Assembly (NCBI RefSeq): GCF_003018115.1
Contig: NZ_CP027457.1
DNA from: Escherichia coli
GTDB taxonomy: Bacteria > Pseudomonadota > Gammaproteobacteria > Enterobacterales > Enterobacteriaceae
Length of the DNA: 64,000 bases
Direction: 5' to 3' (one strand)
This document shows positions 40,804 through 41,296 of the stretch, piece after piece. The notes under the pieces are model-generated. The model was given only the letters and a program-made list of their open reading frames with translations. It searched no databases and was not told where the DNA came from. Numbering within the stretch: the first letter of the stretch is position 1; each line of letters starts with the position of its first letter. A program made the position numbers and the translations under genes.

Positions 40804-40823
40804 TACTGTAAATATAAACAGTG
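40804..40823. promoter_or_regulatory. LexA box (SOS operator)
   Basis: tactgtaaatataaacagtg fits CTGT-N8-ACAG with AT-rich spacer; a weaker partial copy lies just downstream; sits about 40 bp upstream of the 40864 start codon. Confidence 0.7.
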
Positions 40824-40863
40824 GTTATGTATACAGTATTGTTTTGGTGTCATAGGAGGAAAG

Positions 40864-41052
40864 ATGCAGGACTATTTTTTGGAGTCTTTGAAGCTCCAGC
40901 GCATTGATTTTTTTCTTAAGCTTGTAGCGGCTAGTGAGTGTAGTGATGAAGAGAAGGGGCTGGCTCTGCAGTGGGTTTCTGAATTGACTGATGAACTCAT
41001 GGCAAAAATCAGAAGCCACGAATACAACCGCTCAATGGATGTCATCAGCTGA
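40864..41052 (+). CDS. SOS-regulated small protein, first gene of the DinI-like module
   Basis: 62-aa ORF with strong RBS taggaggaaag; directly downstream of the LexA box. Confidence 0.5.
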   Translation: MQDYFLESLKLQRIDFFLKLVAASECSDEEKGLALQWVSELTDELMAKIRSHEYNRSMDVIS

Positions 41053-41062
41053 GGTGACTTTT

Positions 41063-41296
41063 ATGCGCATTGAAATAATGATCGATAAAGAGCAGAAGAT
41101 TAGCCAGTCTACCCTGGACGCCCTTGAATCCGAGCTTTACCGCAATCTGCGCCCCCTGTATCCCAAAACGGTAATTCGCATTCGCAAAGGTAGCTCTAAC
41201 GGTGTGGAACTAACCGGACTGCAACTGGATGAAGAAAGAAAACAAGTGATGAAAATTATGCAGAAGGTGTGGGAGGACGACAGCTGGCTGCATTAA
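41063..41296 (+). CDS. DinI-family protein
   Basis: MRIEIMIDKEQKISQSTLDALESELYRNLRPLYPKTVIRIRKGSSNGVELTG...WEDDSWL resembles DinI (MRIEV...WESADDWF); RBS gaggtg; the ORF-track upstream extension is rejected. Confidence 0.75.
   Translation: MRIEIMIDKEQKISQSTLDALESELYRNLRPLYPKTVIRIRKGSSNGVELTGLQLDEERKQVMKIMQKVWEDDSWLH

Follow-up and report, generated by a model that had tools for sequence, protein, structure and literature searches.

A split tum operon as the probable SOS induction switch of a Fels-2-type, P2-like prophage of Escherichia coli

How a P2-like prophage may be coupled to the DNA-damage response of its host is the question raised by a short two-gene module of Escherichia coli. P2 itself is not inducible by DNA damage, unlike phages of the 186 type. 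The module lies in a stretch of 64,000 nt from this species (assembly GCF_003018115.1, contig NZ_CP027457.1; hereafter the window, with positions counted from its start), where the sequence reads as gene A, a LexA box at 40804-40823, a 62-aa ORF and then a DinI-family gene. A preliminary description, made from the sequence alone, had proposed a near-consensus LexA box ahead of a 62-aa ORF with a strong ribosome-binding site and of a DinI-family gene, all of it immediately after gene A and at the edge of an accessory hotspot. This arrangement had been likened to the SOS-inducible antirepressor of the 186 tum type, leaving undecided which of the two products would relieve CI repression. Most of this picture has held, and the module is very probably the SOS operon of a Fels-2-type (186-like) P2-family prophage, in which LexA would repress transcription, TumA would act as the antirepressor of CI and TumB as a modulator. 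In any case, the system is already known, and identical proteins have already been examined genetically in E. coli HS. The features of the module are as follows.

Ending at 40711, 5′ of the module: gene A (Phage_GPA, E=6e-128)
40781..40786, + strand: putative -35 (TTTACA) of the SOS promoter, 17 nt 5′ of TACTGT, counterpart of that of 186 p95
40804..40809, + strand: putative -10 (TACTGT), overlapping the left arm of LexA box 1, by analogy with 186 p95
40804..40823, + strand: LexA (SOS) box 1, TACTGTAAATATAAACAGTG, from its consensus match
40819..40838, + strand: predicted LexA (SOS) box 2, CAGTGGTTATGTATACAGTA, overlapping box 1 in a colicin-type double operator
40854..40859, + strand: Shine-Dalgarno AGGAGG of tumA, 4 nt before the ATG, read from the sequence
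40864..41052, + strand: tumA, 62-aa antirepressor of the Fels-2 STM2728 / E. coli HS WP_001154431.1 type, by homology and by identity with DuoHS
41041..41058, + strand: small hairpin GTCATCAGCTGAGGTGAC, from the tumA stop codon through the tumB Shine-Dalgarno, given by a terminator-like scan (6 pairs)
41063..41296, + strand: tumB, 77-aa DinI-family protein, equivalent of the C-terminal half of 186 Tum
41305..41334, + strand: hairpin GCCCCCA...TGGGGGC, just past the tumB stop codon (RNA fold of -20.5 kcal/mol, z=-1.55)

The DNA of the module is 96.6% identical to that of Fels-2, and many P2-family phages and prophages of Escherichia, Klebsiella and Salmonella match the region as a whole at 96-98% identity. 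Gene order is the same in Fels-2, 186 and PSP3, with the module just 3′ of the replication gene A, and the location described at the outset is confirmed, gene A ending at 40711 and the box starting at 40804. In Fels-2 and PSP3 the tum gene is split by a stop codon (PMC3121763, citing Bunny et al. 2002 and a personal communication of G. Christie), and the module of the window is recognisable by sequence as such a split tum operon (tumA-tumB) of a Fels-2/PSP3-type P2-like prophage, which gives the tum-type reading a more precise form. Its two proteins match those of DuoHS, a prophage of E. coli HS, at 100% identity. Variable sites among relatives fall at codon positions 1, 2 and 3 in numbers of 3/3/12 for tumA and 2/0/28 for tumB, the latter being a biased figure, as identity of the TumB protein was the criterion by which the loci were picked. 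In both ORFs variation concentrates at the third codon position, which is evidence that they are coding. A search for RNA families (Rfam) gave none between 40400 and 42400.

The LexA operator is the element on which SOS control of the module would depend. The core of box 1, CTGTAAATATAAACAG (40806-40821, inside the 20-mer TACTGTAAATATAAACAGTG), follows the pattern CTGT-N8-ACAG, which in its bare form is expected 0.6 times per window, appears at least once in 45 of 100 shuffles and is not significant alone. The 20-mer consensus with three mismatches or fewer, on the other hand, has a single match in the window and none in the 100 shuffles, and the near-consensus box at 40804-40823 described previously can be maintained. 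Moreover, this core is invariant and keeps its position in the window, Fels-2, 186, PSP3, a Yersinia phage and ESSI-2, while the flanks diverge. What had been missed is a second, overlapping box at 40819-40838, so that the operator stands as a LexA operator but no longer as a single box. The right half-site of box 2 is perfect, and its left half-site is degenerate and shares bases with box 1. Across 43 natural upstream variants, the three arms (CTGT, ACAG and ACAG) are almost invariant, and most of the variation falls in the 5′ UTR and in three bases of the spacer of box 2.

When the 48-nt operator was searched against plasmids, small colicin plasmids and pPCP1 of Yersinia pestis were returned. 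The matches sit directly 5′ of the colicin N (cna) and colicin E1 (cea) genes and in an intergenic region of pPCP1, whose record shows no gene at the match or 3′ of it and which we take to be the pesticin operator. With cea, cna and pPCP1 the alignment runs column for column over about 40 nt, at 86-90% identity. The operator of the module is thus predicted to be a double overlapping SOS box of the colicin type, its two boxes sharing one arm, and both boxes would be occupied by LexA. To our knowledge, the double operators of colicins have no link to phage induction. Fels-2 likewise has the double SOS box; in 186, PSP3, the Yersinia phage, ESSI-2 and ESSI2_ev015 there is a single LexA box only.

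A generic sigma-70 scan detected no promoter at the module, because the -10 (TACTGT) is too weak for the scan rule. The same hexamer is annotated in phage 186 as the -10 of p95, within the LexA site there, and the SOS promoter of the window would occupy the position of the annotated p95. As for the -35, TTTACA is unchanged in 42 of the 43 upstream variants, and together with both boxes it is kept in SopEPhi and in Klebsiella phi13.6 (TumA 85-90% identical) despite the diverged flanks.

The 62-aa ORF (40864-41052), preceded by AGGAGG at 40854-40859 in agreement with the strong ribosome-binding site first described, is annotated as a hypothetical protein almost everywhere among the records examined. 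Its product is 97% identical to the TumA of Fels-2 and 100% identical to the DuoHS protein of E. coli HS, and matches phrog_698 (E=5.9e-38). Searches of Pfam and PDB with the 62-aa protein gave no match above threshold, and a sub-threshold Pfam match to PPP1R21_C (E=0.095) was dismissed. TumA and 186 Tum gave no alignment when compared directly by BLASTP, which is why their homology rests on an intermediate sequence and on profile comparison: TumA aligns with a 60-aa 'tum protein' of the Yersinia phage (E=9e-8), this protein aligns with the N-terminal 42 residues of 186 Tum (E=2e-10), and a profile-profile comparison (hhalign) of the TumA family with the N-terminal half of 186 Tum reaches a probability of 91.7% (E=7.9e-7). 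TumA is, to judge from these alignments, a remote but consistent homologue of the N-terminal, antirepressor half of 186 Tum. An AF2 model depicts it as a two-helix hairpin (H2-23 and H28-61, pLDDT 88.8). In ESSI-2 and the Yersinia phage a TumA-like gene follows a LexA box although no DinI gene is present, which supports TumA as the probable core of the switch. The 62-aa gene could carry the name TumA, or Tum antirepressor, in annotation.

The second gene, tumB, starts at an ATG at 41063, 10 nt past the tumA stop codon and with GAGGTGA upstream. A mechanical ORF of 101 aa is the same gene with a 5′ extension only; the homologous part opens with MRIE, like E. coli DinI and PSP3 TumB, and the start was placed at 41063 for this reason. 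The DinI-family assignment, already made from the sequence, is upheld by the match to Pfam PF06183 over the full profile (1-63; E=6.6e-23, 81.3 bits for a cut-off of 24.2), by phrog_189 (E=1.5e-29) and by E. coli DinI itself (PDB 1GHH, E=2.7e-6). TumB is 100% identical to the proteins of E. coli HS, BL21 and Fels-2 and 78% identical to PSP3 TumB, and it aligns with residues 71-145 of 186 Tum (41% identity over 75 residues, E=3e-24), of whose fused form it is evidently the counterpart of the C-terminal half. As a member of the DinI family, TumB may bind RecA filaments and modulate the SOS response. The hairpin at 41041-41058, the only one within the operon flagged by the terminator scan, could speculatively serve a translational coupling of tumA and tumB.

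Experiments on identical or near-identical modules have been published. In the prophage DuoHS of E. coli HS, neither lysis nor virion foci follow mitomycin C treatment once tum is deleted in frame, with the start fused to the stop codon, and the same holds for a non-cleavable lexA(Ind-) allele (PMC12055606 Extended Data Fig. 1; PMC11195241). The published junction primers of this deletion fall in the window at 40844-40866 (1 mismatch) and 41050-41072 (exact). These primers bracket the 62-aa ORF, so that the gene deleted in DuoHS is this ORF and the ribosome-binding site and ORF of tumB were kept; the operator of E. coli HS differs from that of the window in spacer bases only. Exposure of Salmonella TA100 (Fels-2+) to the mutagen MX raises expression of STM2727 by 5.5- to 14.8-fold, and STM2726-2727-2728 of Fels-2 behaves as a single operon (PMC2225428). 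STM2728 is a 62-aa hypothetical protein and the next gene is annotated as 'DinI family protein, similar to PSP3 TumB', and by locus-tag order STM2727 would be this DinI-like gene. The phage record has the DinI-family gene STM2727 under the tag STM2726.1. For PSP3, the antirepressor is stated to be encoded by the upstream gene and the DinI homologue by the downstream one (PMC3121763), and the PSP3 record describes tumA as 'similar to 5′ end 186 tum; UV induction of prophage' and tumB as 'similar to dinI and 3′ end of 186 tum'. By extension from DuoHS, whose two proteins are identical to those of the window, the module would be needed for SOS-dependent induction here as well. The question left undecided in the preliminary description can also be narrowed, as the evidence points to the 62-aa TumA, rather than the DinI-like protein, as the one that relieves CI repression.

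The presumed target of TumA is encoded in the same window, within an immunity region of the 186 type, with these features:

34872..35504, - strand: cI, 186-type immunity repressor and presumed TumA target (Pfam Phage_CI_repr, E=3.9e-33, and Phage_CI_C, E=1e-40)
35621-35863: gene in the position of Apl
35896-36405: CII (Phage_CP76)

The CI protein is 93% identical to that of Fels-2 and 30% identical to that of 186, and its closest solved structure is that of 186 CI (PDB 2FJR, E=2e-28). Pfam searches of CI (E<=0.01) showed Phage_CI_repr and Phage_CI_C only, with no S24 peptidase (autocleavage) domain. Such a repressor is not open to inactivation through RecA-stimulated autocleavage, and an antirepressor is therefore the expected route of induction. 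A lambda-type induction through autocleavage of CI was considered and ruled out, as no S24/LexA-like domain is present.

Pairing between TumA and CI was compared in 80 IMG/VR loci retrieved by TumB identity. TumA is 97-100% identical in all 80 of them, an invariance that is partly linkage, since the loci were chosen on TumB identity, and their CI proteins form at least 25 groups below 80% identity. With the same TumA in all 80 loci, an attempt at detecting TumA-CI covariation had no TumA variation to correlate; a set of five TumA types compared with the N-terminal domains of their partner CIs is suggestive, the sample being too small for statistics. Among the CI partners of TumA, identity to the CI of the window is 55-100% (median 68%) in the N-terminal DNA-binding domain and 19-99% (median 29%) in the C-terminal domain, the corresponding values for 186 CI being 40% and 28%. 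The CI of E. coli HS, with which this exact TumA was paired in the published genetic test, is one of the divergent types, with 38% overall identity. Conservation of the N-terminal domain of CI fits a recognition of this domain by TumA, and the constraint of DNA binding alone could explain it as well. TumA would bind CI directly, by analogy with 186, and the contact would be made with the conserved N-terminal domain. Binding to CI and the blocking of its operator binding are published for the fused 186 Tum only (Shearwin 1998, as cited in PMC3121763).

The most likely pathway would start in the undamaged cell with LexA bound to the double overlapping operator (40804-40838), covering the -10 and the start region and keeping the operon silent. 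DNA damage would activate RecA, LexA would undergo self-cleavage and the promoter would fire. TumA, a 62-aa helical hairpin, would then inactivate the 186-type CI and the early lytic promoter would be released. Finally, TumB, as a DinI homologue, would most likely tune RecA/SOS activity and the timing of induction, and would not be the inducer itself.

Three other explanations have to be set against this pathway. That TumB could be the true inducer, either as antirepressor or through RecA, with the 62-aa protein as an accessory or leader peptide, is suggested by phage 186, where Tum includes the DinI-like part in its own chain and a role in modulating SOS induction is annotated for shorter in-frame products. 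Deletion of the 62-aa ORF alone in E. coli HS, however, abolishes induction with tumB kept in place (PMC11195241), the antirepressor of PSP3 is the upstream gene (PMC3121763), deletions of dinI homologues in Gifsy prophages have no significant effect on induction (PMC3121763), and both ESSI-2 and the Yersinia phage combine their LexA box with a TumA-like gene in the absence of DinI; an inducing role of TumB is thus very improbable. Even less credible, to the point of being negligible, is the idea of an AT-rich palindrome that resembles a LexA box by chance, with the ORFs as constitutive or otherwise regulated cargo. The expectation of 0.6 bare CTGT-N8-ACAG cores per window and the empty consensus promoter scan would agree with it, whereas the 20-mer has no match in 100 shuffles, the box is invariant over six lineages and 43 natural variants in which flanks and spacer vary, the operon of Fels-2 is induced by DNA damage (PMC2225428) and induction of DuoHS depends on lexA (PMC12055606).

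A reading that deserves slightly more attention, unlikely as it also is, accepts the module as intact but not as an induction switch in this prophage, either because its CI would be insensitive to TumA or because the prophage would be defective, leaving the module as an SOS-induced modulator of the host of the DinI type only. The integrase, with a 1-nt deletion and two ORFs, speaks for it, as does the persistence of the module in the clearly defective prophage of BL21, and with TumA paired to at least 25 types of CI not every pairing need function. Against this, Fels-2 pairs a 93% identical CI with a 97% identical TumA, the N-terminal domain of CI is conserved in all partners (55-100% identical), and the title of Bunny et al. 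2002, as cited in PMC3121763, presents a lexA null as lethal because of Fels-2. Moreover, the frameshift hits excision and not derepression, and is possibly a sequencing error. An SOS switch acting through TumA is accordingly retained as the preferred reading of the module.

Downstream of tumB, the hairpin at 41305-41334 is likely to be the end of the transcript or its stabiliser, and the start of a cargo hotspot. A canonical intrinsic terminator was excluded here, as there is no U-tract. In relatives, three unrelated sequences occupy the site after tumB, each of them folding as a hairpin and none with a U-tract, and in 186 the equivalent place after tum is annotated as a partial terminator, t95a. 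The position at the edge of a hotspot, also part of the preliminary description, is borne out by 25 different downstream junctions among 70 relatives. The cargo of Fels-2 comprises two hypothetical genes (STM2726, of 243 aa, and STM2723.1) ahead of the portal gene, that of BL21 after tumB is the retron Ec86 and that of E. coli HS two hypothetical genes; in the window the cargo includes a minus-strand ORF of 111 aa and a GmrSD_N/AlbA_2 protein of 593 aa that matches PADLOC NsnA. The integrase shows a 1-nt deletion with respect to Fels-2 near 34406/34407, which splits it into two ORFs. Induction may not release phage, because the integrase is frameshifted, and this frameshift could be a sequencing error.

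A last question is related to the reach of the module, which would account for the expected inducibility of the prophage by DNA damage, including that caused by antibiotics. It is present in 1124 of 5426 complete E. coli genomes, among them BL21, other laboratory strains of the B lineage and strain C, and is also common in prophages of Klebsiella and Salmonella. It is quite possible, if somewhat short of probable, that the double operator provides a tighter repression and a later, threshold-like induction, and that one TumA serves at least 25 types of CI through their N-terminal domain, with a possible cross-induction. If so, SOS induction of one prophage could cross-induce co-resident P2-like prophages with a different type of CI. 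In the literature searched, neither the double operator at a Fels-2-type tumA nor the pattern of one TumA with many CIs was found stated, and the two would be modest and testable additions to a well-understood switch.

Among the known systems, DuoHS of E. coli HS is alike in its identical TumA and TumB and in an operator and a position after gene A that are nearly identical. It differs in its CI, 38% identical to that of the window (66% in the N-terminal and 27% in the C-terminal domain), in the cargo that follows tumB and in an integrase that is intact, whereas that of the window is frameshifted. Fels-2 shares the type of CI (93%), the same double SOS box and a transcript induced by DNA damage (PMC2225428); in this phage the next gene is the 243-aa hypothetical STM2726, grouped in the same operon by PMC2225428, whereas the similarity of the window to Fels-2 extends no further than the tumB stop codon, with other cargo after it. 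PSP3 has the same split layout of two genes after gene A, annotated for UV induction, but its TumA is recognisable at the family level only (A2 alignment and hhalign), its LexA box is single and its CI has 286 aa with a duplicated N-terminal domain. Phage 186 shows the LexA site over the -10 (TACTGT), the location 3′ of gene A and the CI/Apl/CII switch that gives the type its name; its record describes a Tum of 146 aa, 'repressed by LexA; inhibits CI DNA binding', with shorter in-frame products. The differences are that in 186 the two halves are fused in this one 146-aa protein with internal starts, that the LexA box is single and that orf97 comes next.

More distant likenesses are found outside the P2 family. 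The operators of colicin E1, colicin N and pesticin have the same layout, including a TGGTTAT spacer, and colicin operators bind two LexA dimers (PMC2994835), although they drive bacteriocin genes on small plasmids and have their -35 and -10 upstream of the boxes, with 8 more bases between. The dinI-gfoA/gftA operons of Gifsy-1/2/3, on the other hand, are likewise repressed by LexA and join to a DinI homologue a small antirepressor, by which a non-cleavable repressor is inactivated (PMC3121763). In these lambdoid phages, however, the order of the genes is reversed, and antirepressors and repressors are unrelated in sequence to those described here (PMC3121763).

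The SOS operon of the prophage, in which the antirepressor gene tumA is followed by the DinI-family gene tumB, lies next to a variable stretch of cargo genes, and the features discussed here map within this operon, at its edge with the hotspot and at the int end of the prophage:

27787-32502, plus strand: repetitive ORF of 1571 aa, immediately beyond the int end of the prophage
32793-33839, minus strand: ORF of 348 aa adjoining int, with a weak PADLOC match
33829-34868, minus strand: prophage integrase in two ORFs (175 aa and 174 aa), with the break near 34406/34407
41041-41058: 6-bp hairpin GTCATCAGCTGAGGTGAC, covering both the stop codon of tumA and the Shine-Dalgarno sequence of tumB
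41305-41334: hairpin past tumB, of the type GCCCCCA..TGGGGGC
41489-41824, minus strand: acidic ORF of 111 aa, matching phrog_17127 (E=2e-70)
42357-44138, plus strand: cargo protein of 593 aa, in the hotspot, which separates tumB from the portal gene

The hairpin at the junction of the two genes could couple the translation of tumB to that of tumA. In the first 70 nt past the tumB stop codon, three unrelated sequences occur at one position among the relatives (L008-L087), namely the type of the window, TTGCTGGCGTC..GGCGTCAGCAA and TTGCGGACGAT..ATCGTCCGCAA. Each of the three forms a hairpin that lacks a U-tract and precedes a semi-conserved motif (GGTTGAACAACGAG / GGGCAATGAG), and hairpin and motif together may mark the edge of the cargo hotspot. 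Immediately past the hairpin of the window lies the 111-aa ORF, on the strand opposite to tumB, and a gene of equal size occupies the equal position in BL21 (L007 8778-9113), beside retron Ec86. The 593-aa protein combines a GmrSD_N (DUF262) domain (E=1.6e-22) with a weak Schlafen/AlbA_2 match, and its top PADLOC match is NsnA (E=8e-31); this cargo gene is likely to serve in anti-phage defence.

At the other end, comparison with the Fels-2 int indicates that the integrase frame is broken by a one-base deletion (CACTGG-CAGCC vs CACTGGTCAGCA), which is either a sequencing error or the mark of a true pseudogene, in which case the prophage would be excision-defective. The adjoining 348-aa ORF shows no Pfam domain, and its PADLOC match is to '2TM effector' (E=2e-4). 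From its translation alone, the 1571-aa ORF appears to join an autotransporter-like repetitive N-terminal part to a C-terminal domain.

Among the relatives, locus L065 carries, in the 95 nt upstream of tumA, an unrelated GC-rich sequence in place of the -35 element and the first SOS box, and the right part of the second box is the sole remnant of the operator boxes. L065 represents a natural promoter rearrangement in which LexA control may have been lost.

The CI repressor ORFs of six relatives (L011, L059, L087, L042, L077 and L044) bear an N-terminal extension repeating part of the DNA-binding domain (R-D-x-F-P-A-D-W-V-I..ETG..WL), although start codons in the IMG/VR loci were chosen by script and the extensions are possibly over-long. 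In the CI of PSP3 (286 aa; L090 1219-2079), this domain is present in two full copies. Finally, the defective P2-like prophage found in B strains of E. coli (L007, BL21-Gold(DE3) 2897373-2914081) has kept identical tumA and tumB together with their operator, whereas its CII gene and gene A have been shortened and joined into one; therefore, in B strains SOS-induced expression of TumA and the DinI-like protein is predicted from a dead prophage.
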